Of a stretch of DNA of 48,078 nucleotides, positions 135 through 31,976 are shown one piece after another (position 1 is the stretch's first letter; each line of letters opens with the position of its first letter). The position numbers and the translations under genes are program-made. Source of the DNA: Nemertoderma westbladi (taxonomy: Eukaryota; Animalia; Xenacoelomorpha); NCBI GenBank assembly GCA_032718475.1, contig JAUCBJ010001358.1, positions 1 through 48,078 of the forward strand, written 5' to 3'. The notes beneath the pieces are model-generated. The model searched no databases. It was not told the DNA's origin and saw nothing but the letters and a program-made list of their open reading frames with translations.

Positions 135-429
135 GTGAATTTTACTATTTAGCTACCTTTACACTGTGTTTTTGTTAGATAATTGCCTATAAAGGTTACA
201 TAAATATGTCATGACCGTCTCCGTATAAGAACCTTTTAACTTATCCTTTTATTTTGCATATTATGTAGCTTTAACATGGAAATAAAAATCATATGTAACC
301 TGCGGACCCATCCCCATCATAAGTTGAAACTGTGCATTTTAATAATATTGTTCCTACCATTTTACATATTATGATTTGTTTTTATTGTGTATATATATAT
401 ATACCTCTGTTTATATATATATATATATA

Positions 430-740
430 CAAAAATGTTCTTATCTCTCTCAATACCAACCATACGTGTAGGTTTTCCTCAATTTTAAAATAATTATGGA
501 AAAATAATATTTTTATTTATTTTTTTGCATGTGTTTCGCCGGGATTTGGCTCATCAGCTACACTAACCCGTGCAGGACACATGTTAATCTAACTAACTAC
601 ACCAAAAACCAGCAAAACACACACACGCAAAAACAAAATAGGATTGCATTCCAGATCAAATACACAATCATTTCCTTAGCAACACTAAATAATTTTAAAT
701 AATTTTACTCTTGATAATTTTGGCCTAAGTACTAAAATTT
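430..740 (-). repeat. Inverted copy of the hammerhead-bearing 468-bp repeat unit (internally deleted)
   Basis: Reverse complement matches 4897-5160 and then about 4836-4880; segment order is consistent with the tandem unit. Confidence 0.85.
528..583 (-). ncRNA. Type III hammerhead ribozyme (copy 1)
   Basis: Minus strand reads CAUGUGUC-cugcac GGGUUA guguag-CUGAUGA-gcc AAAUCCC ggc-GAAACACAUG: intact core, GUC cleavage triplet, three stems. Confidence 0.9.
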
Positions 741-787
741 CGTACTAAAATAGGTAGTAAGTACTAAAATTCTGGCCTATTTTTCCA

Positions 788-3700
788 TACTACTACTACT
801 AGGTCGAGCGAACTCGGACAGTGGAAATGAGGTCCTTCCAGGCTTCCCGATTCTCCATAGTTGTCGCAATTTCGTTTCTCCCAAGTTCAGTATCCCTTTC
901 AAGTTGATCTATATATGTTATGGCCGGTCGTCCACGACTACGCTTTCCATGAGTTGGTTGCCAGAGAAGTAGATCTGGTATGACCTCGTCTTTACTTCGC
1001 CAGCAGTGCCCACTGAATCTTAATCTGCGTTCACGGAGGGTGGTTGATACAGGTGGTATTGTACCATAAAGCTCGGCGTTTGTCATGTGTTGTCTCCAGC
1101 TGATGTTTAGGGCTGCCCTTAGTAGTCTTGTGTAGCAACCATCAATTCGTTGTTCAAGTGATTTAGTCAGTGTCCAGGTCTCACCCCCGTATAAAAATAC
1201 ACTTTCCACTGTGGCTCGAAAGAACTTAGTCTTCAGGTGCCTGGAGAGATCTGATTTCCAGATGGTATCCATTTTTGATAGAGCTACCCAAGCCTTTGCT
1301 TTCCTAACTTCTATGTCCTTTTTGCTACTCTCTATCCATGATCCAAGGTACTGGAAGTCATCGACCTTCCTTAGTTGATTATTATCAATGGTTGTCAAGT
1401 TTCCATCAACATTAAAGTTCATGAATTCGGTCTTGGTAGCATTTATATGCAATCCAACCTCCTTAGCAGCCCTCTCCACTTTATTTAGTAGAAGCTGTGC
1501 ATCTGCTAGCGTATTAGAGAGCAGGGCGATGTCATCCGCAAAGTCGGTGTCTGTGACTGTAGATGCCGGATATCTACTACTTCTGCGTTCTTGAAGTGTG
1601 AATCCCAGATCTTCACCCTTTGTGGCCGTCCTCATTGCGTAATCCAGCACAATTACAAATAGTAATGGTGCTAATGTGTCACCTTGCAGTACGCCAGCCA
1701 GGATTGAGAAAAACTCAGTTTCACCATCTGGTGAGAGTACATGCGCTTCTGTGTCACAATATAACAATCCAATGCCAGCAACAATTACTTCTGGTATTCC
1801 ATAAGCTCTTAGGATTTCAAGCATTTTACCTCTATGGATGGAGTCGAATGCCTTCTTGAAGTCCACAAAAGTCATGACTGCGGGGAGATTCTTTGACTTA
1901 ATTCCTTCAATCAGTCTCTGTAGTGCAAGTATCTGAGCTATTGTTGTTCTACTTGGTCGAAATCCGTTTTGGCTCTTACGCAGTAGTTTCTCTATGTGAG
2001 GCCTAATCCTATATAGAATCATTTTATAGTATATTTAGGCAGCTACCACAAGCAGACAGATCCCACGATAGTTTGTTGGTATGCCGAGGTCTCCTTTCCC
2101 GGCTTTAGTTGACCTTTAGTCCAAATTGGTGGTGGCTTTTCCCCTTTTAACATCCGGTTGCAAACATTCAATAATGGTCTATTTAGCACTCCGGTTTTCC
2201 ATACCACCGCTGGGATTTCATCTAATCCACTCGCTTTATTATTGGACATGCTTTTAATGCTTCTTTGGAGTTCGGCAGGTGTGAAGTCCCCTGTTTCTAT
2301 AGGTAGTGTCTTGTCATATATTTTCCTTGTAGGGCTGACCTCGATGTTTGGTGGCTGCCCAAGCAAGTTGCTGAAGTGATTTTTCCACTTCCCAACACGT
2401 TCTTCAGGACTATCGGCTTTGAGGCGCCCCTTTGCACAACTTTTCCGACCAGATACCTCATTTACAGTTTGCCAGGTAAGTCTTGATTGTTGCTGTATGT
2501 GAGCAGTTGTAACTGCTTCAGTTTTATCCTGTATGTACTTTTCCTGGCTGATGTTGTAGGCCAATTTAAGATCGTCCTTAGCTTTCTCAACCTTGTTAAT
2601 GTTTTCGGTTGTTGGTTGTTCGGTTTTAACTTTGTAGGCTATCTTAAGATCTTCTCTCTTACAAGTAACCTCAGAGTTTTGCCATGGCACATACTGTTTT
2701 CGTTTAGGTTTCTGGGGGATATGCCTCTTAGCTGATTCTTTGTGGGCTGTTATTATATTCTGGTATATTGAATCGGTGGATTGGTCTTCATCCATTGACT
2801 GAAGTGCTTCAAAGCGGTTTTGAACTTCTACTGTATAAGCATCCTTTACAGCATTGTCAGTTCTGAGTTTCTCCCAGTCATAGTTGATTTGCTTGCTTGT
2901 CCTGGGTTTGCTGTCTCTCAAACTGAGTCTGATCTCTGCAGTCACAATTCTGTGGTCCGAACCAATTAGGTTGAACGAACTGTATGCCTCGCAGTTGATC
3001 ATGCTATTTCTCCACTTTTTGTTTATAAGGATGTAATCCAGTTGTGCTTTGGTTCCATTAGGGTATTGAAAGGTCCATAGCTTCCACTTACTCTTTTCGA
3101 ATGTGTTGTTTGTTGGTATCAATTCACATTCTTCCATTAGGTCTAAAAGTAAGTACCCATTTCTGTTAGAACTGGTGTTATAGGTGTAACCCTTGATGTC
3201 TTCTGGGCCAATTTGCGCATTCAGGTCACCAGCAATGACTTTAACATTGTGTTTCGGGATGTCCTTAATAAGTCCAGTCAGTTCTTCATAAAACTTGACT
3301 GCTTGTTCTGGCTCTGATGCATTGGATGGACTGTAGCAACATATAACTGTTGTCTTGGGATTCCCATCAAATGTTGCGATCATAACCCTGGAATTTATAG
3401 ATTCGATGTTGTTTAGGGTCTAAAGTGCAAATGGGCTTAGCAGAATTCCTACTCCACCAATTGATGCATTGGCCGAGTTTCTTACTGCTGAGCTTGTTAC
3501 TAAGTCCATCCATTTCCAATGCCATTGTACTTCATGGAAGTGTCTTCATGACAAATCCGATGTTCTTGGATGCAGATGATGTCGATGTAATATTCCATTG
3601 CCAGAGCGACCATGTCACCCTGTTTGCTCTGTGCTTTCAGCGTGTGTGCTTTCATTGTAGCAATCTTTAGTGTCTTTTTACATTTCAACAGGTTGGTTCT

Positions 3701-4330
3701 TCTTTCTTCTCTGTCTTCTGTTCCAGTAGCCAATTTATCGACCCCAGCCTGGTGTACCACTGAGGGACGCGGTCCTTGTTGACCCGGGCGACGACCGAGC
3801 CGGTATTTCTCCTGGAGGGTTCTCATACTCATATCTTTCAGTTGCGGGAGTAAACCGCTTGTGGTCGCAACTCCTACAAGCGTCTTCGCAGTAGGTCGCC
3901 GTTGGTTGATTACCTTCCGCCGACCTTGTCAGCATGTCTGTCTAGCCGTTGGTTGATTACCTTCCGCCTATCCATGGCTTACAGCCCTGCTGCCGACTGT
4001 AGGGGTCCATTTGTTACACCCTGAACCAAGTGTGCCTCCTGGGTTAGGTTACCTAACACCGGTAGAGGAGCATCCAGTATAGCCAGGGCGGGGCTTGTAT
4101 CATGTCTAATGCAGATGCGTATCAAGCCTTTGCCTTCAATGGTGCCCTAGGCGCTATAGCCCTCAATGACTTATTTAGTTGACGGGGCTGAACCAACCCA
4201 CTCTTGATCAACTAAATAATGAATAGGCTATGCTTATCGGGCCTGCCCTGCCCTACTGGGCTGACAGCTACAGATAGTACCACATTACTGCCATAGTGGT
4301 AGCAGGATCTGGGGACCTGACCTGACCTGA
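788..4330 (-). mobile_element. Near full-length, decayed RTE-clade non-LTR retrotransposon (family 1)
   Basis: APE endonuclease (IICIQEHR, AGDLNA, LDYIL, SDH) in ORFs 3500-3832 and 2043-3383; RT (FVDFKKAFDS, GVLQGDTLAP, FADDIALL, YLGS) in 799-2022; frameshifts/stops near 3500, 3420, 2110, 2035; (TAG)n 3' tail at 788-801; about 500-nt 5' UTR starting with (TCAGG)3. Confidence 0.95.
799..2022 (-). pseudogene. Reverse transcriptase portion of RTE family 1 ORF
   Basis: Non-LTR RT motifs QNGFR, DFKKAFDS, QGDTLAP, FADD, RRLRFSGHCWR; cut from upstream EN part by stop/frameshift. Confidence 0.92.
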
Positions 4331-4384
4331 ATAGTAAATATATAGTAAATATGAATGAAGAAGATTTTATTTAATAGTAGTAGT

Positions 4385-4576
4385 ACTAACTGCACCAAAA
4401 ACCAGCAAAACACACACACGCAAAAACAAAAGGAACCCTTCAGTATTGTTTTAAAAAGGGTTTCCTCAATTTTTGCATAATTATTTTAAAATTGAGGAAA
4501 CCCTTTTTAGAACAATACTGAAGGGTTTCTTTTGTTTTTGCGTGTGTGTGTTTTGCTGGTTTTTGGTGTAGTTAGT
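4385..4576. repeat. Long imperfect palindrome (about 90-bp arms) built from the hammerhead repeat unit
   Basis: actaactgcaccaaaaaccagcaaaacacacacacgc...cctcaatttt / aaaattgagg...gcgtgtgtgtgttttgctggtttttggtgtagttagt are near-exact reverse complements with a short AT spacer. Confidence 0.85.
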
Positions 4577-4584
4577 TAGATTAA

Positions 4585-4640
4585 CATGTGTCCTGCACGG
4601 GTTAGTGTAGCTGATGAGCTAAATCCCGGCGAAACACATG
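4585..4640 (+). ncRNA. Type III hammerhead ribozyme (copy 2)
   Basis: Same motif; stem II gcu/ggc (U-G wobble keeps pairing); predicted cleavage after 4592. Confidence 0.9.
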
Positions 4641-5052
4641 CAAAAAATAAATAAAAATATTATTTTTCCATAATTACTCTAAAATTGAGGAAAACCTTTT
4701 TAGAACAATACTGAAGGGTTGCGTTAAACCCGAAAATGTTCAGAAAATAGTAGCGATTTTTAAGTGACTGAGTGGTTTATATATATTTTTTGAGAAAATA
4801 TAATTTAATGTAATTTTTTATTGGTAAACCACCTGACACACATATGGTTGGTGTTGAGAGAGATAGGAAAAATTTTGTAAAGATAAATCCCAACCAATTT
4901 AGTACTTAGGCCAAAATTAGCAAGAGAAAATCATCAGTTAAAATTATTTAGTGTTGCTAAGGAAATGATTGTGTATTTGATCTGGAATGCAATACTATTT
5001 TGTTTTAGCGGGTGTGTGTTTTGCTGGTTTTTGGTGTAGTTAGTTAGATTAA

Positions 5053-5108
5053 CATGTGTCCTGCACGGGTTAGTGTAGCTGATGAGCCAAATCCCGGCGA
5101 AACACATG
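5053..5108 (+). ncRNA. Type III hammerhead ribozyme (copy 3)
   Basis: Identical to copy 1; predicted cleavage after 5060. Confidence 0.9.
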
Positions 5109-5287
5109 CAAAAAATAAATAAAAATATTATTTTTCCATAATTATTTTAAAATTGAGGAAAACTTTTTAGAACAATACTGAAGGGTTGCGTTAAAGCCGA
5201 AAATTATCAAATAAATCCTTAATGAATGAATGATGTCACAATCAGTATGATGTATTTATGAGGGAATGAGGGAGAGTTGTTTATGTA

Positions 5288-5668
5288 GTGTGCGTGCTGG
5301 GTGCTGGGTGCTGCGTGCTGGGTGCTGCGTGCTGGGTGCTGCGTGCTGGGTGCTGCGTGCTGGGTGCTGCGTGCTGGGTGCTGGGTGCTGCGTGCTGGGT
5401 GCTGGGTGCTGGGTGCTGCGTGCTGGGTGCTGCGTGCTGGGTGCTGGGTGCTGCGTGCTGGGTGCTGCGTGCTGGGTGCTGCGTGCTGCGTGCTGGGTGC
5501 TGGGTGCTGCGTGCTGGGTGCTGCGTGCTGGGTGCTGGGTGCTGCGTGCTGGGTGCTGGGTGCTGCGTGCTGGGTGCTGCGTGCTGCGTGCTGGGTGCTG
5601 CGTGCTGGGTGCTGCGTGCTGGGTGCTGCGTGCTGGGTGCTGCGTGCTGGGTGCTGGGTGCTGGGTGC
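5288..5668. repeat. 7-bp minisatellite (GTGCTGG / GTGCTGC)n
   Basis: About 54 interleaved copies of two heptamer variants; explains the four overlapping repetitive ORFs. Confidence 0.97.
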
Positions 5669-6966: not shown

Positions 6967-7027
6967 ACAAACTTACGCCAATCACGTTTCTGCTGGTTGA
7001 TAGTGGGCTTGCGTGTTTGAATGTAAT
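6967..7027 (-). mobile_element. Short Penelope-like element 3' fragment
   Basis: Reverse complement matches 10293-10353 (YIQTCKPAINKQKRDWRKF). Confidence 0.7.
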
Positions 7028-7238
7028 CCAAACACACATGCTAATCCAACATGGTAAGACAGGCAGAGCAGTTAACTAGTTAACCAGTTATCTGTTCTTT
7101 TCTTGGACACAGTGGTACTAATACTGGTACTTGGGTAGGCCTAACTGGCTGGAACAAACTGTACAGCTGTACTGCTCTATTGAATAATTGATGTGTTTAA
7201 TACGCATATATATATAGTATAAAGAAAACGTCAAACGT

Positions 7239-8625: not shown

Positions 8626-9343
8626 AGTGTGCTCCTGCAATGGAACCGACATACAGGACGAAAATCATGTACCGGTATTGTTTTACTGTCATAAAACAGA
8701 GAATGTCAGATTAAAACATCACATCAATTTCTTCCACTCACTAGACGACTTAGATAGCTTGACCAATAATTTACACGACTTATTTACACGTTCGTAGGGC
8801 CTTCGCGTAGCACGAGGTCAAATTAAACAGAGTCTATGCTCACCTTACTTCGTGGCTCGCCCCACATTGTTGTTGAGATATAAAATAACTTTTTCCTAAA
8901 GTTTTTTTACTAGTTGAAGCCAAATATTGCATTTGTTGGTCACTTCAAACCTAACTATCGGTTATATTTATTTATCTATTTATATTGTATGCATAATCAT
9001 TCTTGAACATTATCGTATTATAGTTATTTATTTAGAAACCTATGTAGTATTTGACCTAATATTCGTCTCAAACCTAACTAACAGTTACTGTATATTTATT
9101 TATTTATATTGTGAGTAAAATCATTCGTGAACATTATCGTATTATAGTTATTTATTTAGTAATCTATATTAATAGTGTAGTAGTATTAGTATCTATATTA
9201 ATCATGCAATAAATAATTATTTACTAACGTTTATTCATACACCATTATTGTGTCTTTATAAAGTGTCTCATTTATATTTGATGGTCATGTGTGCGCTATC
9301 TCATAACTGTTATTCTTAATGACAATAAACTAACTAACTAACT

Positions 9344-9666
9344 AATACATTTCAAGCTTTTGCAAGACTGCCCGCAATGGGTGTCTAGCAATTACTTTGA
9401 AGTGTTTAAACAATTCAAGCCAGCCAACGTGTATTGGGCTCGCCACGGTGCGTCATGATGTGGTTGTGCTTCAACATATTCCCCCTTACAAGAGGGACAA
9501 GAGAAAGAGTAAACGACTTTAGACGCAAGGATATCCGGGACGGGATGTTTTAGAGATGGGAGTGACTGGCGCAGTTTCGACGTAGTGAAAACGAACCAAA
9601 CTGGCCGTCTGCAAGACCTGGGCATAAGTCTTAGCCACTTTCGAACAAACAGATTGGTTTTCCGAC
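9344..9666 (-). mobile_element. Penelope-like element GIY-YIG fragment (inverted copy)
   Basis: SKVVYSFSCPSCKGEYV resembles the PLE GIY-YIG motif VVY..xC..C...YVG; reverse-complement similar to 9937-10295. Confidence 0.8.
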
Positions 9667-9936
9667 ATCGGTACTCAAACTTACAGATTATGGGCTTTGA
9701 ATCATCAGCAGCCGCCTGGTCCACCGAGTCACTGACCTTGGTTGGGACAACTGTTGGTGCCTCGCCCCCATAACCACTACTTGCACGCCCCCTAGCGGCT
9801 TGAACAACGGCTAGCTCATGCTCGACTACAGCATCAGCATATTTTGGTTCTTGCTCAGAATATACTTAGCATCCCCAATATCGGTATAGAGTTGGGAACG
9901 ATCCCCACCCTTACTGGCGTTAAAGATGCGACCAAG

Positions 9937-10390
9937 GTCGAGCAACCGATCTGTTTGTTCGAAAGTTGCGTGGACTTTCTACCCAGGTCTTGCACACGGC
10001 CAGTTCGGTTCGTTTTCACTCTGGAGTGGAACATGGACATCTAAACTGCGCCAGACATTCCCATCTTTAAAACATCCCGTCCCGGATATCCTTGCGTCTA
10101 ATGTCGTTTACTCTTCTCTTGTCCCTTTTGTAAGGGGGAATATGTTGGACACACCATCCAAGCACAACCGCATCATGACGCACCGCGGCGAGTCCAATAC
10201 ACATTGGCTGACTGACTGGCTTGAATTGTTGAAACATTTCAAAGTAATTGCTAGACACCCATTGCGGTCAGTCTTGCAAAAGCATGAAATGTATTACATT
10301 CAAACATGCAAGCCCGCTATCAACAAGCAGAAACGTGATTGGCGTAAGTTTGTTCGTAATTATTGGATACTCAAGCTTCTACTTCAATAA
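9937..10390 (+). mobile_element. Penelope-like element GIY-YIG fragment
   Basis: KHPVPDILASNVVYS...GEYVG (frameshifted)...HFKVIA...EMYYIQTCKPAINKQ, typical C-terminus of PLE endonuclease (E..yI...kP.lN). Confidence 0.8.
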
Positions 10391-11822: not shown

Positions 11823-13777
11823 TTAAAGCAAATCGAGTGCACAATTTAAGTCGGACAAAAAATTACACCGAGGCTTGATATCTGCACACATAAAAATCGG
11901 AAGACTCAAGAAATGAATTTCACTGGCATATTTTACTCGTAGTGGCTGAGACAAAGGACATGTCAGACCGATATGTTTTTCGTCCTGTATAGATTCATTA
12001 TCACATCTACAGGTTGTTCGTTGCTCGGGTGTTAACGTCAACCGTCAAGCAAGATATAGAATTATATATACCGTTCGCAAGATATAGAAAATCAAATGAG
12101 GTGCTTATATATTCGTGGTAACTCTATGATTAGAAAATTTAAATCGTGTAGCAGCCCGGTTAAAAGTATTTTATTTCACGCTGAAGTAGACACGTTTATA
12201 ATCCGGAATAAATATACGCGTATGTTTATTATCTCCCTATAGTATGGGAGATAGTACTCCTATAGTACAAGAGACGGTATTCCTATAGTATGGGAGACGG
12301 TATTCGAATATACGCTGTGGAGGGATACCTCCGGATTAATCCCTAAGTACGTTACAAATTTAGTTTGTTTCCGAGACCGTGCGACAATTTCAGCCTACTG
12401 GCTGGCAGAATATTTTCGTCGCCTTTTAATGATTTATCTATGGCCATGAAACCTAGTGTATTACTACTTTTGGCCAGTTGGAAAGCGAAAAATATGGGGT
12501 CTTCCTCTTTCCAGGATTTTAAACAGCGCACGAAAAAACATTTCTTTCTATGTTTAATAACTGCATTAATATCAGCTAGGCCCAACTCTGCCAGACATAG
12601 TAGTTTAGGTGTAGTTACTCGTACGTTTAGTAAAGTCTTTACGAGTCGTACATATGTAGTCTCAATGGCTTTACATGCTGAGATACTAAACCACGCTTTG
12701 CACGAGTACAATAGGGAGGCTGTCACTGCGCTGTGGAATACCGCCTTTTTTAAATGAAATGGCATATTACTATTTGCGGCGCAAAACACCGCAAATTTGT
12801 TCACATTCTTCTGACATTGTTCCAAGTGGCAGTTAACAGTTAGAAAGTTTCCCGTCTTGTGTAATATAAGCTCCTAGGTAGACATAAATATCGGTATTAC
12901 AAACTACCACATTTCCTAACTTAAAATCGCCTTGATCAATAGGATTACCATTAATAACTATAAACTTTGTTTTTTTCTCGTTTATTACTTTACCATAAAT
13001 CGAACAAAATCGTCCTAATACATATAGCTTTTTTCAAACATTTCATGCAAGGTTGCGATGATAGCTGTATCATCCATAAGTAGGAGGGCGTGTAATGCAC
13101 ATTAATATCCATCTAAACTGACAAATCTCAACATATGTATCAGAGGGTCAATGAAAAATGTAAAAAGAAAACCACTGGATGGCGCACCCTGTCTGAGACC
13201 CAAGTTGGTTAGTATATCTAGAGAGTTAAGATGTAAGTAAGTCGTTCTGTATAAAGTGCAGATCGCGTTAAGCATTTTCTTGCCACAACCCATCTCTAAT
13301 AAACGCACTAATAATTTAAACCTTGGTACTCTATCGTATGCCTTATTGAAATCAACAAATGTTATAAATAACTTTTGTTTTTGTGACATGGCATAATCAA
13401 TTTAATAAACGGAGAGTTAAAATTTGTTCTATGCATGAACGGCCCTTCTGGCCACCGGCCTGGGCCCTGTCTGGTGCAGCCCAGTGCGACAACCGCTTAC
13501 CCAAAATACAATCATATATCTTAGCCAGTGAGTCTACGATTGAAATCTCCCTGTAGTTATCACAATTACTAACTTCGACTCGTTTAAATAATACACAAAG
13601 TTTACTGTACATCCATACTGTAGGTATCGCAGCACTATCCAAAACACAATTAAATATTACTGCAATTATAATAATTATATTAAATGGTAAAACCTTTAAT
13701 AGGTTAGGGGCGATACCAGAAGCACTTTAATTAGCCTTGAGTTCGTGTAACGCTTCGTCAACTTCGGTGGCGGTAAT
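11823..13777 (-). mobile_element. Decayed RTEX-like LINE, 3' part (RT and C-terminal CCHC finger)
   Basis: CDNYREIS, QAGGQKGRSCIEQILTLRLL, FVDFNKAYDRV, GLRQGAPSS, LLMDDT, YLG, C-terminal CRCD...DEKH...CP; several stops/frameshifts. Confidence 0.85.
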
Positions 13778-14138: not shown

Positions 14139-17100
14139 TTATCGTAGAAAGTCAATTCGACCATGTTGTATACTCTCCAGGAGATGAAATCCGGATGCTC
14201 CTTTTTTAGTCAAACAATCTGCTATTTGCATGGAACCTGGGCACCAACGCACATATTCAACTTCACCCTTCTCTAGGGATTGTTTTATAGCCCCAATATC
14301 GATTCGTAGTCGCTTGTCATCAACCAATTTCGTTGAGTGAATGGCTTCAACGACACTCTTGTTGTCGACATACGCGCGGATGGGTATCTTTAAAGAATCA
14401 CCGTCACCAATTATTTCTCTAATGACACCTCTTGTGTATATCGATTGCTCTAGACCTTCTTGAAGACTTAACGCCTCTGCAGCTATCGTAGACCGGACAA
14501 CGCGTTTAATCTTGCAAACATTCCAAGAAAGACGACAGGAGCGATTATCTATGCCAACTAGATACAGAACAAATGCCATAGTACTGCTCATTCCGTCTGC
14601 TAGATTAGCTAATGAAGCATCAGTAAATACAATTAGATACCAATTGATTGGGTTACCTAAGTTTGGGAACACAATGAAAGCATTTCTATCTTTGACATTT
14701 AGCAAAATTTTTCTGATTCGCAATAAGTGTTCCATTCGAGCATCCCTGAAGTGTGTGCTAAGATCTATTAGCTCAAAGGACCAGTCTGGGCGAGACCCTT
14801 GCACGAGCCAATTAAGTTTACCAACTAGAGATCGGTACATGGTAAGGTCAGATGGGCCTAAATTTTCATTTTTTGTTGACTTGCTCAAGGATAATGGTAT
14901 GTCTTTTATCTCAATATTCTTTAAGTATGATTCCTGGTTTAAAATTATCTCATTAGGAAGCTGACATAATTCAAAACCAACGTAAGTGAATTTATGAGCT
15001 TCTTCCTTTCCCGCAAGAAATCTATTGGTGAGATTCTGTATAACTTTTAACTCGAAGTTTTGATTTCCGGCATGCAGGAAATCGTCAATGTGTGAGACTA
15101 GAATACCGCAAAGATTGCCATCCTCTCTAAAATAAAATATAGCAGGGTCTAATGGAGATTGGCTGCAACCGAGGGTCAACATCTCTTCTACCACACTATT
15201 GTAGAACTGACGAGCTGCGTCATTCAAACCATACAAGCACTTATTTAAATGCCAAATATATCCCGATGGCGCATCAGCCTCCTGGGGTGGATTGAGGAAG
15301 ACATCATGTACTAGGGATTCACCTTGGAGAAAGGCAGATTTTATGTCAGTTGTTTTTAGAACCCATTTTTTACTGGAAACGATAGCCAAAAATGTGCGAA
15401 GTGTACATTTTGCAACTGTAGGAGAGTCTGTAGCTACCTCAATTTGCTTTTCAAATCCTCTGGCAACTAGACGAGCACGAATCTCTCGATAAGTCGATAT
15501 GCATGGTTGTCCGTTGAAAGGTAGCTCTTGATAGACTTCAAAATCTCTCAATTTTTGTAGCTCCACTAATTTTGCTTGTTGGCACTCAGGGGAAGACTGC
15601 TCTTTTCTGGGAATGAGAACTAAATTTACTTCATTAGTCGCATCACCTTGGATCCAAGGGTTAGAACCAAAGTCGATGCTCCTCTGAACTCCATTAGACT
15701 CCTCCACGTTAAACCAATCCCTATACTTTCCTGATGCTATACCAGCACGACCCATAACAGTCGCTGTAAGCCATTGCTGTGTGTCATGATCAAGAAATTT
15801 AATACATTGTGCTGAATGTGGCAAGGAGTTCACGTTATTTGTGGATTTTTGTTTGGACTTTAGATTGTCTGAGTTATTGTCTACATTTGTGTCTTTGTTA
15901 GATGGCACAATTGTCGAGATCATTTCCTGATTGTTGATTCCAGTTGAAGTGGTTGGTACAGTATGCTTTAATACTGGTGTCAGAGCTGCTGTATTTCTTA
16001 TTTTTCTACAATTGTTATCCACAAGTTTGGAAACTGCCTCTGGCTTGAACTCATCAGGAACTTGAACTGCGGGAATTTGTTCAAGTGAATTGATAGCAAT
16101 GAGACGATTAGGAGAAAGACGAATGAATACACCTCCGTGACGCACGAACACCACCTTGCCATCCTGAAAAACCACTTTGGCAGGGCCCAGCCATCTATCT
16201 TTACTATCATGTTTATAATAAACAAGATCGCCATTCTGAAAAGTCTGTTCTGATGCTCGTACTTTATGTCTCAAAGCTATACGAATACGCTCATCAGCTT
16301 CAGATTGTACAAAAGCTTCTCTAGTTGCATGAAGGGCGTTCAAATGGTTAGCAAATGCTTTACTTGTGGTTGAACCTTCCAGTGCTGGGGGATTTGAAGT
16401 CATAGTACATGGTAATTTAGGATTTTTGCCGAACACAAGTTGATGACTGCTGAAACCGTTCCACATCTGGAGAGAGTTTTTAGCCATATTTGCCCAAGGC
16501 AATAAGATATGTTCTGAGATCTGAGGATTATCCTCTTTAAGTTTACTGAGCATACGGTCTGTAATAGAATGATTTCGCTCACATAACCCATTTTGATAAG
16601 GTGCTTGAGCAGCTGTGGTATGTAAATTTACATTTAATATTGAAGCTACTTCCCGTATTTCATCTGAGTTGAATTCCCCACCATTATCACTCATTATACC
16701 GCCCATAATACCGAAAATGGAAAGCCAGTTAGTCATCATTTTATCAACAATGACACAAGGTAATTTACTTGAAACGAAGACGGATACAGTATAGCGAGAC
16801 CATACGTCTACCATATGGAGTATCCACTGTTTTTCCCAAACCTTAAGATTGATAGCAACAACTTGATTAAATTCACTTGCCATTGGTAGTCCAACAATGG
16901 GAATCGGTGGAGATTTTTTGAATCGCTTACAAACTTCACAATGTTCTACAATATCGTCAACTATAGGTTTACAACTATCTTGCCATACCTTAGCATCTTT
17001 TAGGAGATTTATCAGTTTTTTGGCTGATGGATGAGCAAATTGACGGTGTAATTTCAGAATAGTTTGATGAAGGTGCTTGTCATCCATTGCAGTAAAGTTA

Positions 17101-18593
17101 ACTGCACGGATGTAATCTTCTGGGATATCTTTCATAATTGGAATACAGTAATGTCCAGTTGATGTAGTATTTAAAGATATGCGTCTGCCAAAAACTGTGG
17201 CTTCATCAGAATTCAAGTCCAAAGTCATTTGAGCACGCTTCATAGATTCCCTGGAAAGGAGTAGTGGAATATCGGATTCTACAACATCTGTTCGAATTTG
17301 AACATCCCGCCCGGCTATAAAAGCTGGAATTAAACATTCAGAAATTGATTTCAGCTTGGTGCCACCACCAATTTTGAATATTTTGTGACCCTCATTCAAT
17401 TGAATTTTGGATCTGTAAGTATTGCATAAACTAGAAATGTAGTTGTTGATCCAATCCTTTCCACATACAGTGCTGGTACAGGCGCTATCCAATACAGCAC
17501 AATTGGAAGCTTCAACGCCAAGTTGATAAATCTCAGTGGATGATGAGGTCGTAGTGAACACACTTAGCAGAACATCTTCACAATCATACTCCTCCAATAT
17601 TTCCGATGGGGTCGTCTTTTCAGACAGGTTTAGTTCTGCAGGCATCATAGAATCGTGAAATTTGTGATCATTATTAGTGTAGTGGACTTTCTCCAGATTT
17701 TCCCAACTATCAGGACAATCTCTTAAAAGATGTCGAAATGAACCACAGCAGCGACAAGTAAGAGGTTTTCCATCAGTACCAGCGGGATTCACTTTCCTGT
17801 CTTGGGCTCGAACTGCACTAATTCGGTGACCTGAACAGCCCAAATTACCAGCATCTTTCTTATAACTGGGAGGAACATACCGCCTTGTGGAATCAAAATG
17901 TCCAACGTCCCTCCGAACTCTACCACCACCACGTTGCCAATTAGGGCTACTCCTAGAGGAATGATAGTAACCAGCAGCCGCTAGTGCCTCTTCATTTTGG
18001 GCAAGAAAGGTTGGTTCAAGTTTAATGGCCGCACTTTGTAATCCGGATGTTCCCTTGATAATGAATTTTTTTAAAGACTTTTGTGCTTGATCATATAATG
18101 TCACCTTCTGAGAATAATCCATTCCGGTGAGTACTAACACTTTTTCTTCTTTAGAAATGGCAGATCTCCTTAATAATTTAAAGGCCAAAATTTCTGGAGG
18201 GAGACTCATACCAAGTCTCTTTATTCGCTGATATTTCTGATCAAACATTGAAACATATTCTGATATATTGCAGATCTCGTCTCGATGGAAATCTTCGAAG
18301 TCCTCAAACTTTTCGAGACAATCTTCTAAATCGTCTTTACCTAACTTCTCATCTAGGTACTTTATAAGTTCACCTAGTCCATCCTCGCCCTTTAAATCTT
18401 CAATGGAAATCTCATCGAATACTTTCTCTCTAATCTTAGAATCCCCTTCCTCTGGAAGGGATAATGCAATAGCTATACCCTGTTTAGATTTAGGAAGATC
18501 AGTTATTTCTCGCCAAGCTAATAGTTCTCGTTTATAACGCTCATAACTCTTTGAGTCTTTCTTAAACTCAGGTGGATTCAATCTTAACGCCAT
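14139..18593 (-). CDS. Copia-type Gag-Pol polyprotein (1484 aa)
   Basis: CX2CX4HX4C knuckle (CRCCGSFRHLLRDC), protease LDSAC, integrase HHCC + SDNGGEF...NGLCER, RT RARLVARGF/DIKSAFLQ/LYGL/HIDDF, RNase H TDAS...AEA...DNKS...IADCLTK. Confidence 0.96.
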   Translation of the reverse strand: MALRLNPPEFKKDSKSYERYKRELLAWREITDLPKSKQGIAIALSLPEEGDSKIREKVFDEISIEDLKGEDGLGELIKYLDEKLGKDDLEDCLEKFEDFEDFHRDEICNISEYVSMFDQKYQRIKRLGMSLPPEILAFKLLRRSAISKEEKVLVLTGMDYSQKVTLYDQAQKSLKKFIIKGTSGLQSAAIKLEPTFLAQNEEALAAAGYYHSSRSSPNWQRGGGRVRRDVGHFDSTRRYVPPSYKKDAGNLGCSGHRISAVRAQDRKVNPAGTDGKPLTCRCCGSFRHLLRDCPDSWENLEKVHYTNNDHKFHDSMMPAELNLSEKTTPSEILEEYDCEDVLLSVFTTTSSSTEIYQLGVEASNCAVLDSACTSTVCGKDWINNYISSLCNTYRSKIQLNEGHKIFKIGGGTKLKSISECLIPAFIAGRDVQIRTDVVESDIPLLLSRESMKRAQMTLDLNSDEATVFGRRISLNTTSTGHYCIPIMKDIPEDYIRAVNFTAMDDKHLHQTILKLHRQFAHPSAKKLINLLKDAKVWQDSCKPIVDDIVEHCEVCKRFKKSPPIPIVGLPMASEFNQVVAINLKVWEKQWILHMVDVWSRYTVSVFVSSKLPCVIVDKMMTNWLSIFGIMGGIMSDNGGEFNSDEIREVASILNVNLHTTAAQAPYQNGLCERNHSITDRMLSKLKEDNPQISEHILLPWANMAKNSLQMWNGFSSHQLVFGKNPKLPCTMTSNPPALEGSTTSKAFANHLNALHATREAFVQSEADERIRIALRHKVRASEQTFQNGDLVYYKHDSKDRWLGPAKVVFQDGKVVFVRHGGVFIRLSPNRLIAINSLEQIPAVQVPDEFKPEAVSKLVDNNCRKIRNTAALTPVLKHTVPTTSTGINNQEMISTIVPSNKDTNVDNNSDNLKSKQKSTNNVNSLPHSAQCIKFLDHDTQQWLTATVMGRAGIASGKYRDWFNVEESNGVQRSIDFGSNPWIQGDATNEVNLVLIPRKEQSSPECQQAKLVELQKLRDFEVYQELPFNGQPCISTYREIRARLVARGFEKQIEVATDSPTVAKCTLRTFLAIVSSKKWVLKTTDIKSAFLQGESLVHDVFLNPPQEADAPSGYIWHLNKCLYGLNDAARQFYNSVVEEMLTLGCSQSPLDPAIFYFREDGNLCGILVSHIDDFLHAGNQNFELKVIQNLTNRFLAGKEEAHKFTYVGFELCQLPNEIILNQESYLKNIEIKDIPLSLSKSTKNENLGPSDLTMYRSLVGKLNWLVQGSRPDWSFELIDLSTHFRDARMEHLLRIRKILLNVKDRNAFIVFPNLGNPINWYLIVFTDASLANLADGMSSTMAFVLYLVGIDNRSCRLSWNVCKIKRVVRSTIAAEALSLQEGLEQSIYTRGVIREIIGDGDSLKIPIRAYVDNKSVVEAIHSTKLVDDKRLRIDIGAIKQSLEKGEVEYVRWCPGSMQIADCLTKKGASGFHLLESIQHGRIDFLR

Positions 18594-18732
18594 CTCAACA
18601 TGTATTTTTTTTTACATACCAACACGATAGTAAATTTCACAATGCCTCCACGCTACGCAATACTGAGTGAGAATTTACGCAATACACTATCTTTTTTTTT
18701 AACGCTAAAAAGAGGGATTAAGATTGGTCGGT

Positions 18733-19375: not shown

Positions 19376-20567
19376 ACTACTGTCTGACTGACTGGTATTT
19401 GTGAAGGCCTAATACTGTCTGACTGACTGTTATTTGTGTAGGCCTCATACTGTCTGAAAGACTGGTATTTGTGTAGGCCTAATACTGTCTGACTTACTGG
19501 TATTTGTGTAGGCCTAATACTGTCTGACTGACTGGTATTTGTGTAGGCCTAATACTGTCTGACTGACTGGTATTTGTGTAGACCTAATACTGTCTGACTG
19601 ACTGGTATTTGTGAAGGCCTAATACGGTCTGACTGACTGGTATTTGTGTAGGCCTAATACTGTCTGTGTGAAGATCTGGGATTTACACTTCAAGAACGCA
19701 GAAGTAGTAGATATCCGGCAACTACAGTCACAGACACCGACTTCGCGGATGACATCGCCCTGCTCTCTAATACGCTAGCAGATGCAAAGCTTCTACCAAA
19801 TAATGTGGAGAGGGCTGCTAAGGAGGTTGGATTGCATATAAATGCTACCAAGACCGAATTCATGACTTTTAATGTTGATGGATGCTTGACAACCATTGAT
19901 AATAATCAACTAAGGAAGGTGGACGACTTCCAGTACCTAGGATCATGGATAGAGAGTAGCAAAAAGGACATAGAACTGTTAGGAAAGCAAAGGCTTGGGT
20001 AGCTCTATCAAAAATGGATACCATCTGGAAATCAGATCTCTCCAGGCACCTGAAGACTAAGTTCTTTCGGGCCACAGTGGAAAGTGTACATACGGGGGTG
20101 AGACCTGGACACTAATGAAATCACTTGAACTCCGAATTGATGGTTGCTACATAAGACTAATAAGGGCAGTGCTATAAACATCATCAGCTGGAGACCACAC
20201 ATGACAAATGCCGAGCTTTATGGTACAATACCACCTGTATCAACCACCCTCCGTGAATGCAGATTAAGATTCAGTGGGCACTGCTGGCGAAGTAAAGACG
20301 AGGTCATACCAGATCTAGGTAACCAACTCATGGAAAGCGTAGTCGCGGACGACCAGCCATAACATATATAGATCAACTTGAAAGGGATACTGAACTTGGG
20401 AGAAACGAAATTGCGACAACTATGGAGAATCGGAAAGCCTGGAAGGATCTCATTTCCACTGTCCAAGTTCACTCGACTTAGTAGTAGTAGTAGTAGTAAT
20501 ACTGTCTGACTGACTGGTATTTGTGTAGGCCTAATACTGTCTGACTGACTGGTATTTGTGTAGGCCT
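19376..20567. repeat. 35-bp minisatellite (aatactgtctgactgactggtatttgtgtaggcct), about 8 + 2 copies, split by an RTE insertion
   Basis: Period 35 at 19411/19481/19551/19621; resumes at 20497. Confidence 0.93.
19668..20496 (+). mobile_element. 5'-truncated copy of RTE family 1
   Basis: High identity to reverse complement of 788-1616; (TAG)6 tail; flanked by taatactgtctg (19655-66, 20497-508), consistent with a TSD. Confidence 0.95.
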
Positions 20568-22059: not shown

Positions 22060-23704
22060 AGGGTACTAGCGTTGTAAATTGTAGCAGGGAAAATGTTCTT
22101 GATGGGGGTGTTTAGAGCTTTTGCTCGAAAATCGTTCGACCCATGGCGCCCCCTTTCTGTTAGTTTTCAATAGAGGAGGGGATCGATGCCGGTGGCCCAT
22201 CTCGTGAATTTATGAGACTCGCTCATAAAGCCACTCAATCTACCTATATTCGCTGGTGGTGATGATTCAAAATACCTTGTTCTAGAATACAAACTGAGTA
22301 GTCTTATTGTTCTAATATTTATATTTATTGTTATAAACTTTATTAAACTTTACTTACATTGTTTTATGTCTTTCTTATTCCTTGTTTAATAAATATTATT
22401 TATTTATTATAATATTATTAAAAATAATATATATTATAATATTTATTACCTCAGATCAAGGACAGCAGAAATGCGCTAGAATTCGAAACGGCAGTGAACG
22501 TCGTTGAAGACTTGATCAACCTCGCAGGGTGTACCATGATGTCCATACGTTTCTCTCCCGAGTCTAGAATTGCCCTCATCAGTGCTGTTACGAGATTCCT
22601 TGTTATTGACAAAATTCGATTAGCTATTGATCAGTCAGTAGCTTCGTACAAAACCTGCCACATATACTATTATTATTACTACAAAATTGTAATCCCGATC
22701 CCGAAAAACGGGATCCCGAGAGTGGCAATTCCGGTCCCGATCCCGGAAATGATCATTTAAGCCTTGGTATAATGATTAACGAATTCTTATATCACGAACT
22801 CAATAAAAAATTATTAAATACATATTTTATAGATTCACACATGGATTCGACAATGATTTGCTGCTAGAAATGAAACGGTACCCAAATTCTTTTAAAGAAT
22901 CTTTCTTGCACACCAAGATCGAACTAACAGCTAGCTGCCGTGTTTGAGAATATTTTTTATTTCAAGCTTTTGGAAGGAAACAATCTGATAGGACAAAGTA
23001 GAACACTCGCTTACTGGAGAGACTTATTGCAGGATCTAGAAGTTAACTATATATTTTATATTTAAAATACATTATAAAAATATAATAACGTCGTAAAAAT
23101 AATAATGTTGTTCTACATTATCAGTGCTTATTTATCAGGCAATAAATACAGTCTCATTATCCTTCTATCTCATTCTGAATATCACCGTGTTGGAAGGGTA
23201 GGTGTTGAATCCACTTGCCCCCCCCCCCCCCCCCCCCTTATGTTTTAAAGTGTAAATAAAGTTCATAATTAATAAAATAATGTTGATATTTATGAGTCAA
23301 ACATATTTTATAAATGTAATTGAGAAGAAAGAACTTCTGTTTAAATAATTTATCATGAATAATTCTGATTATATTCAAAATAAAATTATTATTCAAATTT
23401 AATTTTAGAGGGCATACCCCATCCAGTTGATAGTGAAACTATCTTGAGTCTCTCAGATTTACTGGTATTCGCCACTGGCTGCAGTTTGGTACCACCATTG
23501 GGATTTGATACACCACAAACCCTTCACTTTATACACCCAGGCAGTGCCGAATCCATATTCAAGGAGGGGCTTCCAACGGCGAATACTTGTGGATTGGTGC
23601 TTGGCATCCCAGTACTAGATGATTACGATATGTTTCGAGAGCTAATGATCAACACTATAGCTAATGTTACAACATTTGTTAATGAAGTAATCCCAAACCA
23701 ATAA
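22060..23704 (+). pseudogene. Degenerate G2E3-like HECT E3 ubiquitin ligase gene (multi-exon)
   Basis: Fragments SRENVLDGG, GIDAGGPSREFMRL (22180-22220), exon IKDS...IRLAIDQ (22456-22633), FTHG...YPNSFKESF...LTA, AYWRDLLQDLE (about 23010-23041), LSDLLVFATGCSLVPPLGF...LPTANTC; stops/frameshifts in first and third pieces. Confidence 0.75.
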
Positions 23705-26650: not shown

Positions 26651-27595
26651 AATAGAGGAAGATTATGTGCCCCTATGTGGCGCTGTACGTTTTTTTCTTT
26701 TTCTTGATTATATGACGAGTGAAGCAAAGATATGGTTGCATTGTAACACCAAGATATTCATACTTGTTTGTGATAGGGAAAGTGTCACCTACGAAAGTGA
26801 ATTGATCAGTGTTAGATAGACGACCTGCTTTTCTGAATTTTATATTTTTTGTCTTAGTGAGGTTAACTAAAATTCCGTTTTCTAGAGACCAGCCATGTAA
26901 TATATTTAATGCATTTTGACATCAGTATTTGTTACTTGAGTAGAAGACCAAATGTATGTTAACTTTTTAAACAGTTAACAGTTAGTTTGTTAACAGTTAA
27001 CTTAACTGTATTTATAAACACACAGCCCAATGACTTGCCTTTCTATGTTATGGATCACACTATTTCTCTAAAGTGCCGCAACCATTATGTGCCAAACACC
27101 ATCGGAAACGTATGACTTGATCGTCGTTACCTGTTATATTCCATTCCGGTATCTGTGAAATGCCACCATTACCTTTATTTCTTTTATTTCTATAACAGGT
27201 TATAATATCTTAAACTAGGTTAATATGATTCATTCATATAGTTAACTAAGCTTTATTTTGTTGGCATTCATTCTTAAGTAAATCTTAGGTATGTACAGAC
27301 CACACCCTAATTTATATTATTATTAATTAGTCAGCATTTTCCCAATTGCAGGTGACATTTAATGTTTGCTAGAAATTTGGACGTGATTTAATACATATTT
27401 AATTTAATTAATTAACTGTACCCATTTAAGGGTCTACTTAAAATTGCACAACTCCTGTATAATAGTCGGTAAATTAGAATTATTAAATACATTTTACCGG
27501 AATATATTATTACAGAACAGAGAGCAAATATAAAGAAATAACCATTTGGTTAATAACCATTGGTATACAAGTTGTAAAAATAAAATTAGGAAGCA

Positions 27596-30500
27596 ATGAA
27601 TGCAATTGTAAACTTCGTTCTTATGTTACCCTTCATCCATGTTGTCTACAGTCTCGGCGGTGAACATGAAATCGCCTTAGCAATGCCACCACATGTGGTG
27701 ATAGTCACCATGTCAACAAGTGGTAAGATTGAGACGAGGGACACATCCCAATCCACCAAACCTTATGGGGTGGATTACGATAAACAGAAGTCGTTGTTTG
27801 TAGGCGACTACAACGGTGAAATATACAAGTTTAGTGTTGATGCTGATTCTATCAGCGACTATGAAGTTGTCCTCTCTACTGAGACTGGCAGTAAAATTGA
27901 AGCATTGCAAATAGCGGATGGGAAAATATATTGGGTAGAAAGAGGAAGTGCTACCATAAATAAGGCCAATATGAATGGTACAAACCATGAAATATTGTAT
28001 AGAGGCACACCAGAACAGAAGTTACGTGGACTTGCGATTGCCCCTGTCAGCGGGTTTCTATATTGGACAGATTGGGGGAACACTGGCGGAGTTCAGAGGT
28101 GCAACATAGATGGTGGCGAATTGCAAGATATTGTTAGTGAAGGTTTAATATGGCCGAATGGAATAGCTGTGGATGAGGATACCCAAACATTTTATGTTAC
28201 GGATGGAAAACAAAAAAAAATCATCAGGTATAACTTGTCCGGGGAAGTTGTTAGTGTGTTTCTAGACACTGATGATACAGCTAATGCTACAACTAACGGG
28301 TTGTTTGGCATTACCATTATAAACGATTATCTATATTGGTCAAACTATGTGAAATATGTAAATCCCTTTACAATCTACACAACTGCCATTTACAGAGCCA
28401 ACAAGTACACTGGGGAGGATGTCACCCAGTTATGGATCAGCTCTGCAAGGATTTACCACGGTTACCAGATAGCTGGAAGGTTGAACACAGGTTAGGAAAC
28501 ACACTTATAATTTTTTTTATATACGGTAAATATGATACTAAAGGCTTAGTTGCACTCTATTATATCAACATACAGTAATCAGACAGTCTGATGAATATAA
28601 ATTCTATAATGGACATATTTGTTGTTGAGGTTTTAGCCAGTAAGTCGTTTGTGGTCATTTGGTGATATCTAATTGATTGATCATGATTATGATCGAAACA
28701 AACAGATAAATTAGGCGAAACATGATTCAGTAATCGGTCGAATAGTGAAACAATATAAAAATATAAATATAACTATAAAAGAAAAAAGAAAAAGAAAAGG
28801 AGATTTGGTTTGTGAAAACAACTAAACATTAAAATCACTAACTTGATAACAAATCCAAAATGTATATATATCGAACAAAGCCAAAAATATACTACAAATT
28901 CAGCCACTAATATACTACAAATTCAGCCACTAATATACTACAAATTCAGCCACTAATATACTACAAATTCAGCCACTAATATACTACAAATTCAGCCACT
29001 AATATACTACAAATTCAGCCACTAATATACTACAAATTCAGCCACTAATATACTACAAATTCAGCCACTAATATACTACAAATTCAGCCACTAATATACT
29101 ACAAATTCAGCCACTAATATACTACAAATTCAGCCACTAATATACTACAAATTCAGCCACTAATATACTACAAATTCAGCCACTAATATACTACAAATTC
29201 AGCCACTAATATACTACAAATTCAGCCACTAATATACTACAAATTCAGCCACTAATATACTACAAATTCAGCCACTAATATACTACAAATTCAGCCACTA
29301 ATATACTACATTTAGACACAAATAAACTACATATTCTGAGCCACTAGTGTACTACATTCCGCATTTACAACATACCAGAGAAATTACATTTCGAGATATA
29401 AGCTTCAGGGAACATTAATCTATAAAAATGTATTTTATTTATATCAGATTTTATATATAATTTTCAATGTATCTTTTCCAGTTTAGTCTATTGTCGACTC
29501 ACATGCGTAAGGATTAAATTTTTTCCATATTTTTTTCATTATTTGTTTTTTTCGTACAAGTGGTATTGTAAAGGAAATATTATAATAATATTTAAAAAAA
29601 AACTCACAAATATTAGAAGACAAGCCATTGACAATGAGAAAGGAGCATGAATATCAATAATTTCGTAAAAAAATTATATCAATTTAATATTTAACTTCTA
29701 CTCATCCGAAGCAAGTCCCCAATATTATTGATTATATATTTATATAATTATTTAAAGGATATTCTACACCATCCACAGTATCAGAGACCAGGACACCATA
29801 TAAAGGATATTCTACACCATCCACTGTATCAGAAACCAGGACATCATTTAAAGGTTATTCTACACCATCCACAATATCAGAGACCAGGACACCGTTTAAA
29901 GGATATTCTACACCATCCACAATATCAGAGACCAGGACACCGTTTAAAGGATATTCAACACCATCCACAGTATCAGAAACCAGGACACCGTTTAAAGGTT
30001 ATTCTACACCATCCACAGTATCAGAGACCAGGACACCGTTTAAAGGATATTCTACACCATCCACAATATCAGAGACCAGGACACCGTTTAAAGGATATTC
30101 AACACCATCCACAGTATCAGAAACCAGGACACCGTTTAAAGGTTATTCTACACCATCCACTGTATCAGAAACCAGGACATCATTTAAAGGTTATTCTACA
30201 CCATCCACAATATCAGAGACCAGGACACCGTTTAAAGGATATTCTACACCATCCACAATATCAGAGACCAGGACACCATTTAAAGGATATTCTACACCAT
30301 CCACTGTATCAGAGACCAGGACACCATTTAAAGGTTATTCTACACCATCCACTGTATCAGAGACCAGGACACCATTTAAAGGTTATTCTACACCATCCAC
30401 TGTATCAGAAACCAGGACACCATTTAAAGGATATTCTACACCATCCACAGTATCAGAGACCAGGACACCATTTAAAGGATATTCTACACCATCCAAAGTA

Positions 30501-31976
30501 TCAGAGACCAGGACACCATTTAAAGGATATTCAACACCATCCACTGTATCAGAGACCAGGACACCATTTAAAGGTTATTCTACACCATCCACTGTATCAG
30601 AAACCAGGACATCATTTAAAGGTTATTCTACACCATCCACAGTATCAGAGACCAGGACACCGTTTAAGGGATATTCAACACCATTCACAGTATCAGAGAC
30701 CAGGACACCATTTAAAGGTTATTCTACACCATCCACAGTATCAGAGACCAGGACACCGTTTAAAGGATATTCAACACCATTCACAGTATCAGAGACCAGG
30801 ACACCATTTAAAGGATATTCAACACCATTCACAGTATCAGAGACCAGGACACCATTTAAAGGTTATTCTACACCTGGTACTGGAATATATACCGAACCAA
30901 CGACCAGTTACAGTAGCCAGTGTAATGTGTGTCTCGATGACAGTTCAGGAAGTGGAAACTGCCTCCCTAGCAATCCATTATATTGGACTGGATTGCACGA
31001 CATTGTGAATGGTTGCGAATCTTGTACTATGGAAACAGTGGCAAAGTTTGGAGATGACGGGTGAGTAGAATACCGGTAATGTAATGCAGCCCAATAGAGA
31101 GGACCCACTAGCTGAATAGCTAAATAAATGAAATATTTTAAGAGCTGCAGCTACAAAACGCTAAATAGATGCACCCATCATGGAACTGTATCTATTTTTT
31201 CGTTTAATGTATTTTTATTAGTCTAACTTTTTTTGGGTTTGATTATCATTAGGTCTGCGACAAAGCAAAGAAATAACAGACCGAACTGAACCTAAAATGT
31301 ACTATAGGTTGTATAGATACTTCAGTCAAATACAGTATTAACATGTGAAAAAATGTTGCCAACTTGAGAAAAAATGTTGCCATCATGTGAAAAAAGTTGC
31401 TTGGCCCAATTATTTAGATTTGGAAGAGGCGATACAAACCAAAAAACTAAGCAGTACGGAATTCAGGTAACCAAAGGCATCTGTTGTATTGAAATTGAAA
31501 TGAAATGCAGATGTAATTCATCCAAGTCAATTCTCAATCTTCATTGAGATATGGACTTCCTCATCTCCCAAAGAGGAAGTTGTATGTAAAAAGGTTCATG
31601 ACAAAGAGATAATAAGAAAAGTAATAGTAATGAGAAAAATACCCTTTTTTTAAGAGAATTTAAATTTGTTAAAATTGTTTGTAAATTTTACAGGGTTGCT
31701 TATCAAGTATATCGAGGATGTGGGTCGAATAGCTGCCCACCAATTCCAGCGCTTTTTGAAAATCCCCGAGAAGCTCAACGGATGAAAAAAGATTGTACAG
31801 TTCGGCATAATGAAGTGAGATGTCTTTACTGTTGTCAAGGAAACTGGTGCACAGACAGTGTGAATGTAATGCAAGATATCAGCAAAGCGATTACAGCAGG
31901 AGCGAAAGGTTCTGCAGAAATAACGACTTTCATGATTGTGTCAGGAGTTCTACTGATATATTTCCTCTACCATTGA
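27596..31976 (+). CDS. Three-exon gene (27596-28490, 29758-31060, 31694-31976; about 826 aa): signal peptide, YWTD beta-propeller, mucin-like stalk, Ly6/uPAR-like Cys domain, GPI-type hydrophobic tail
   Basis: Exon 1: hydrophobic N-terminus, IYWVE, LYWTDWG, WPNGIAVD, FYVTD, LYWSN. Phases match (G|GA; GG|G), joined length 2481 nt is a multiple of 3 with no stops. C-terminus QCNVC...C...CESC...RGC...C...C...CLYCCQGNWC then AGAKGSA + hydrophobic end. Confidence 0.85.
28886..29310. repeat. 23-bp intronic minisatellite (aatatactacaaattcagccact) x about 18.5
   Basis: Perfect head-to-tail copies, no spacers. Confidence 0.97.
29757..30874 (+). repeat. 48-bp coding tandem repeat x23 (GYSTPSTVSETRTPFK)
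   Basis: Period 48; most variants are third-position synonymous in this frame (gga/ggt, aca/act, cca/ccg, gag/gaa, tct/tca). Confidence 0.95.

Follow-up and report, generated by a model that had tools for sequence, protein, structure and literature searches.

Metazoan non-LTR retrozymes are defined by type I hammerhead motifs, and in most of their RNA circles the ribozyme is predicted to be unblocked, unlike in plant retrozymes and viroids (PMC7229834); how animal circles avoid re-cutting is left open in the Discussion of that paper. Plant LTR retrozymes combine type III motifs with a blocking arm, a PBS, a purine tract (PPT) and 4-bp TSDs (PMC4918200). Penelope-like elements (PLEs) leave partial tandems with an adjacent inverted copy and show a bias towards (TA)n (PMC8557442), and internal priming has been shown for the Poseidon RT (PMC11167929).

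We analysed a window of 48,078 nt from Nemertoderma westbladi (the whole stretch, positions 1 to 48,078 of contig JAUCBJ010001358.1, assembly GCA_032718475.1), near the start of which lie three copies of a small hammerhead-bearing element. Like metazoan non-LTR retrozymes (PMC7229834; 10.64898/2026.07.22.740005), it consists of short, non-coding units in tandem, each with one hammerhead, and has a GC content below 50%, no LTR, PBS or PPT, a dispersed multi-copy distribution and a proposed Penelope partner. It differs from them in its motif, which is type III and not the type I that defines the class, in the position of the hammerhead body at the 5' end of the monomer, and in the blocking of the hammerhead by a complementary arm, where the prediction for most animal circles is a free hammerhead; the unit, at 468 nt, is also slightly above the 150-450 bp quoted in PMC7229834. 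With plant LTR retrozymes (PMC4918200) it shares a dimeric type III arrangement and a hammerhead paired with its complement in a long arm of the predicted circle, but it lacks PBS, PPT, LTR ends and a 4-bp TSD, has 31% GC as opposed to more than 55%, is smaller, and differs in its fold-back and (TA)n junctions and in a loop contact predicted to be Watson-Crick.

Two further systems are close. As in the type III hammerheads of termites and dipterans and the HDV-like ones (PMC7936874, PMC3088659), the motif lies in an animal genome and has complementary loops 1 and 2; helices I and II are extended in all of these, and the termite copies are isolated (PMC7936874), whereas those studied here are compact, tandem and multi-copy. 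Penelope pseudo-LTRs, or pLTRs (PMC4209133, PMC8557442), likewise show a partial tandem, an adjacent inverted 5' copy, a microsatellite target and a hammerhead within the repeat. Unlike those, the present element has no attached RT/GIY-YIG ORF within the window, its motif is type III and not type I or minimal, and its inverted arm mirrors the 5' end of the direct copy itself. Judged from its sequence, the element is retrozyme-like in its presumed workings and fails one defining feature of each described class. Our search of the full-text literature found no animal retrozyme that is tandem, of type III and equipped with a blocking arm, although an earlier mention is possible in subscription papers and supplements, which lay outside that scope.

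Hammerhead motifs, blocking arms and the predicted monomer

The hammerheads and the unit that they delimit are as follows.

4585..4640, + strand: type III hammerhead A, predicted cut after C4592, with an apparently private C>U at 4620
5053..5108, + strand: type III hammerhead B, predicted cut after C5060
528..583, - strand: type III hammerhead C, predicted cut after 576, identical to B
4593..5060, + strand: predicted monomer, cut to cut, 468 nt, 31% GC, non-coding

A type III descriptor matched three times in the window and not once in 200 dinucleotide shuffles (both strands), confirming the three motifs of the original prediction at their places. Each has the CUGAUGA and GAAA core and three stems of a type III hammerhead. 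Read from the sequence, stem III has 6 bp plus U16.1-A15.1, next to a GUC site, and is open at its end; stem I has 6 bp and a GGGUUA loop, and stem II has 3 bp and an AAAUCCC loop. The motif occurs in one polarity only of the unit. Hammerheads B and C are identical in sequence, and A differs from them by one C>T, at 4620. The predicted cut sites at 4592 and 5060 lie 468 nt apart, and the longest ATG-started frame between them has 24 codons on either strand, so the spacing is non-coding, as originally predicted. The motif is atypical for curated models, however: the proposed check against Rfam gave no gathering-level match, and none of the 25 matches at E<=10 over 300-5400 belonged to a hammerhead family.

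The two loops are complementary over three G-C pairs, or over five pairs in a shifted register, and a Watson-Crick kissing contact of loops 1 and 2 probably replaces the usual non-canonical one. Pseudoknots of this kind are predicted in ~40% of hammerheads (PMC3088659). In an energy model without pseudoknot and without Mg, the isolated hammerhead fold is not the nearest-neighbour minimum, lying 4.7 kcal/mol above it.

Public DNA runs of the species (six listed, of which four, from three studies, hold part of the stretch; X1 to X5 denote individual runs) were used to follow variation. No RNA run was listed as a carrier of the stretch, which has no bearing on its expression. Loops 1 and 2 are invariant in them at the >1% level, without covariation, and neither the window copies nor the runs gave any two-sided covariation in the hammerhead stems. 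The change at 4620 (gcc to gcu), at first read as preserving pairing, does keep a U-G pair, yet it favours a hairpin over the catalytic core, with a penalty for the hammerhead alone of +9.7 kcal/mol in A compared to +4.7 in B; it thus favours a misfold and is not evidence of selection. Since it is absent from the variants above 1% in runs aligned to copy B, it looks like a private mutation and not covariation. Nor did the flanks prove to have diverged more than the hammerheads, as had been claimed (1/56 against 6/152 differences, Fisher p=0.68).

Each hammerhead is preceded by a 48-nt arm that is a decayed reverse complement of the whole hammerhead.

4544..4591, + strand: blocking arm A, -50.1 kcal/mol, z -9.0
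5012..5059, + strand: blocking ('anti-hammerhead') arm B, complementary to 5063-5109 and rich in G-U pairs; the 3-nt tip holds the cut site
577..624, - strand: blocking arm C, -52.4 kcal/mol

The hairpin 5012-5109 folds at -52.4 kcal/mol in the sense strand (z -9.1; 0 of 200 shuffles) versus -24.5 in its reverse complement, and none of 500 shuffled arms folded as well as the real one. Among 44 opposed positions of arm and hammerhead, counted in two registers either side of a bulge and excluding the three loop positions 5036-5038, there are 30 Watson-Crick pairs, 10 G-U, no A-C and 4 others, a bias of G-U against A-C with p=0.002. A DNA inverted repeat in random decay accumulates G-T and A-C about equally often. 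The G-U excess without A-C, together with the greater stability of the sense strand, therefore points to pairing in sense-strand RNA, and not to a DNA palindrome.

This upstream arm is predicted to lock the hammerhead shut. With nearest-neighbour energies, which leave pseudoknot and Mg outside the model, the hammerhead fold costs 30-35 kcal/mol in a short local context with the arm, compared to 5-10 without it. The original prediction had the monomer released by plain read-through transcription; as the arm outcompetes the hammerhead by ~30 kcal/mol in a short local context, such release is not expected, and cleavage would need a special context.

The monomer as a circle has an MFE of -116.8 and a z of -4.9 against 60 shuffles, with 66% of positions paired, compared with the >70% reported for retrozymes in PMC4918200. 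Its interior alone is neither unusually structured (z -1.4) nor rod-like, and it is thus the arm that carries the structural signal. In the cut monomer, the 3' arm is predicted to lie on the 5' hammerhead strand (4595-4641) through 41 pairs. Only 2 and 1 nucleotides would stay unpaired at the two ends, which are accordingly predicted to be juxtaposed and held together for ligation.

Copy family, insertion anatomy and neighbouring features

Contigs aligned to 4985-5135 numbered 74 in X1, 48 in X2, 28 in X3 and none in X5; X4 gave three contigs on the stretch, none of them on the hammerhead. Summed contig depth (X1, X2 and X3; two studies) was 4,700-83,000 over 5015-5104 versus 31-500 at 5117-5135, and contigs pass into unlike sequence at ~5012 and at 5107-5114. 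A 50-nt contig of X3, identical to 5047-5096, reaches a depth of 2,775, as against 9-29 for long contigs on the stretch. This suggests a copy number of roughly a hundred or more, a rough figure given that depth is not copy number. The element is multi-copy on two grounds, its three window copies and the contig depth in three DNA runs, and a core of ~160 nt is common to subfamilies with different interiors. Five variants are listed above 1%, none of them in 5053-5105: one falls in stem III (5106 A>G, turning U-A into U-G) and four in the arm, where 5022 and 5032 each break a pair, 5028 repairs one and 5046 makes a G-U. On copy number and covariation, the runs thus show a multi-copy core, conserved without covariation in the hammerhead. 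A second conserved segment lies upstream of arm B.

4949..4997, + strand: second family-conserved box, a 9-bp stem with an internal-loop cap, z -3.0; summed X1 depth 14,008 at 4960-4992

We regard this box as a candidate RT-binding signal. Outside the species, an exact 26-mer of the element had no matches in metagenomes, and a degenerate pattern had none in viral contigs or in prokaryote genomes. The sole match of the degenerate pattern, in a metagenome locus, was rejected as chance, having 60% GC and neither hammerhead fold, repeat nor likeness to the window.

The array occupies 4481-5209 and consists of a ~193-nt unit piece, one full 468-nt unit and then ~149 nt.

4385..4480, - strand: fold-back inverted arm of 96 bp, mirroring 4481-4576 (90/96 Watson-Crick) and covering most of blocking arm A
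4481..4529, + strand: ~193-nt unit junction, a copy of 4674-4720 fused directly to the arm region
5061..5209, + strand: partial next unit, the array stopping ~149 nt beyond the second cut site
419..736, - strand: copy C, about one turn, circularly permuted, without ~137 nt
390..430, no strand: (TA)n microsatellite that copy C enters at its 3' end, with the junction near 428

Copy C starts at the equivalent of 4898, crosses the cut site and ends near the equivalent of 4880-4888, and short duplications of its start fill 737-786. Neither of the two insertions ends at a cut site. The partial tandem, the inverted 5' copy and the microsatellite target are marks of Penelope-type insertion, seen here in two insertions only. 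The ~193-nt junction recurs in an X1 contig of depth 178.

The fold-back is centred on a small palindrome of the unit (the equivalent of 4661-4672), as would be expected from the self-primed fold-back of a cDNA. Three mismatches outside its loop are also G-T, too few for interpretation. An assembly artefact is unlikely, since the arms differ and a 120-nt contig spans the centre in X1, which is possibly the source sample. In RNA, the fold-back arm would sequester most of arm A, and the modelled penalty of hammerhead A falls from 34 to 9.7 kcal/mol. Separately, a 12-nt match to the palindromic site 4661-4672 at 776-787, between copy C and the tail of the adjacent LINE, is either coincidental or a possible trace of another fold-back.

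Between copy C and the array lies a LINE, which we take to be RTE-like.

787..4331, - strand: broken AP-endonuclease/RT LINE with Exo_endo_phos_2 and RVT_1 domains and a (TAG)n tail

Its 5' end was set by a drop in depth at 4332/4333, where there are short direct repeats. The LINE is very deep in the DNA runs, and its best homologues are 52-65% identical. With ends and a depth profile of its own, it is unsupported as a partner or part of the element. A GC-rich minisatellite of 7/14/21 nt follows at 5291-5668, from ~80 nt past the end of the array. Further along the window we identified a MITE-like element with long segmented inverted arms (9343-10296), to which a 64-nt piece at 6967-7030 is related; an open frame of 1490 aa that carries an integrase domain and RVT_2 (copia-type; 14139-18611, - strand); a single-exon ORF (27590-28495, + strand) that encodes ~300 aa, begins much like a signal peptide and contains LDLR class B (YWTD) repeats, without a homologue at E<=1e-3 among 830 candidates; and a 375-aa sulfotransferase-like ORF (36353-37480, - strand), for which one homologue was found, at 32%. 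Additional broken RT pieces, together with a fragment of a HECT domain, occur at 34624-36008 (+), 13105-13401 (-), 19658-19999 (+) and 23384-23701 (+), and satellites at 45653-47347 (20 nt, 86 copies, G-rich), 28879-29356 (23 nt) and 29750-30874 (48 nt). The LDLR-B ORF, the AP-endonuclease LINEs, the copia ORF and the HECT fragment are consistent with an animal host.

Origin and possible mode of spread

On these sequence features, we consider it probable, at roughly two chances in three, that the element is a non-autonomous non-LTR retrozyme, with a transcript that would be cleaved into monomers, each then ligated to form a circle that locks itself and is likely reinserted by a Penelope-like RT. 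The retrozyme-like, circle-forming interpretation first put forward is strengthened by the sense-only arm, the multi-copy, near-invariant core and the Penelope-type marks, while the arguments from gcc/gcu, flank divergence and plain read-through release have fallen away.

The insertion marks could also be read another way, the copies being truncated pLTR fragments of an autonomous PLE elsewhere in the genome that uses a type III hammerhead. The inverted 5' copy, the partial tandem and the (TA)n target all fit PLE insertions, one core with many unlike flanks fits the pLTRs of several families, and Xenopus retrozymes match pLTRs (10.64898/2026.07.22.740005). We nevertheless think this origin unlikely, because the 468 nt between the hammerheads hold no ORF, because the PLE hammerheads described in PMC4209133 are type I or minimal, and because an arm joining the ends of a short monomer would be without clear purpose on a 3-kb mRNA. 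In addition, a GIY-YIG domain is absent from the 106 window ORFs scanned, namely 31 of the 59 with 100 aa or more (the remaining 28 lying in satellites or antisense to other ORFs) and 75 of 62-99 aa outside large repeats. No Penelope ORF is attached to the unit within the window; by the original prediction, attachment to an RT ORF would have recast the unit as an ordinary pLTR. It is quite improbable that the hammerhead is permanently locked, while the element spreads in the form of DNA or uncut RNA and its motif serves as a fold or a protein-binding site instead of a working ribozyme. The local penalty of 30-35 kcal/mol, the missing covariation and the finding that hammerhead mutants left Poseidon insertion in vitro unimpaired (PMC11167929) would suit such a state; set against them are a core and stems that, the end of stem III at 5106 apart, stay invariant above 1% in a family whose flanks can no longer be aligned, a cut site placed exactly at the hairpin tip, and plant retrozymes, which cleave while being transcribed despite having this lock (PMC4918200).

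The dimeric layout, the type III motif and the blocking arm are traits of plant LTR retrozymes, and the locus can be drawn as a plant-like LTR retrozyme or TRIM moved by Gypsy, with 208-bp LTRs (4530-4737 and 4998-5204) around a 260-bp interior. This we hold to be extremely improbable: there are no TG..CA ends, neither a PBS after repeat 1 nor a purine tract before repeat 2 was found at the repeats (relaxed ARAGORN gave two low-score tRNA-like matches on 301-5400), no 4-bp TSD was seen, GC is 31%, the permutation of copy C crosses the supposed LTR edges, a fold-back arm is present, and the three window copies have no fixed ends. There is also very little to be expected of an endogenised viroid-like or satellite-like circular RNA, replicating from RNA to RNA and captured by reverse transcription. 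Its locked rod arm and its type III motif with likely kissing loops, as in insect genomic and HDV-like hammerheads (PMC7936874), would be in keeping with one, but the hammerhead is present in one polarity instead of both, the interior is not rod-like (z -1.4), the unit is AT-rich, and the degenerate pattern had no match in viral contigs.

A non-autonomous non-LTR retrozyme of this build might work as follows. The array would be transcribed by Pol II read-through, the presence of T5-T6 runs arguing against Pol III. A hammerhead would fold only while its upstream arm is held elsewhere, by the released hammerhead strand of the previous unit, by internal sequence or, at this locus, by the fold-back arm. 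In stepwise folding after a cut at A, arm B lies on the strand of A at all lengths tested up to 5102, and stem I of hammerhead B has formed by 5078; at 5108 the blocked state is ahead by 1.9 kcal/mol, and once hammerhead B has folded, a direct path away from it has to cross a barrier of ~18 kcal/mol. A kinetic hand-off of the arm to the upstream strand is therefore plausible in the model. The fold of hammerhead B costs +11 kcal/mol after a cut at A and +14 without any upstream hammerhead; the hand-off would not be specific, because the interior also pairs with the arm. For comparison, 8 of 9 Xenopus retrozyme dimers were without cleavage in vitro (10.64898/2026.07.22.740005).

The juxtaposed monomer ends would next be ligated by an RtcB-type enzyme, as shown in vitro for animal retrozymes (PMC7229834), and in the resulting circle the arm would pair with the hammerhead and block re-cutting. 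Target-primed reverse transcription could then start from internal points of the circle or of an uncut multimer, and such internal priming would give permuted and partial-tandem copies with inverted 5' arms. The array mixes 193-type and 468-type junctions, which is not expected from repeated copying of one simple circle and speaks against simple circle copying.

Implications for animal retrozymes

The published division sets plant retrozymes (type III, locked, LTR) against animal ones (type I, mostly unlocked, tandem), and a plant- or viroid-like ribozyme and lock combined with animal-type, Penelope-like insertions breaks it, with a bearing on the origin of viroid-like circles. On present sequence evidence, the element would likely spread by way of an RNA circle whose build follows that of plants and viroids and departs from the known animal circles. 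A type I motif would then not be needed for the propagation of such repeats, a possibility raised in PMC3088659.

More tentatively, and with well under an even chance of being right, the locus may represent a third retrozyme design, carried by an animal lineage: a Penelope-mobilised, portable cassette of ~160 nt, made up of the box, the arm and a pseudoknotted type III hammerhead, which would cut only on hand-off of the arm to a neighbouring unit or an inverted copy, present both ends to a ligase and then lock itself. The cassette is short, and its arm predicts both the timing of cutting and the presentation of ends for ligation, which could be of use in circular-RNA expression designs. If true, this would make the cassette a context-sensing circularisation switch of natural origin and an animal counterpart of the plant retrozyme and viroid architecture.
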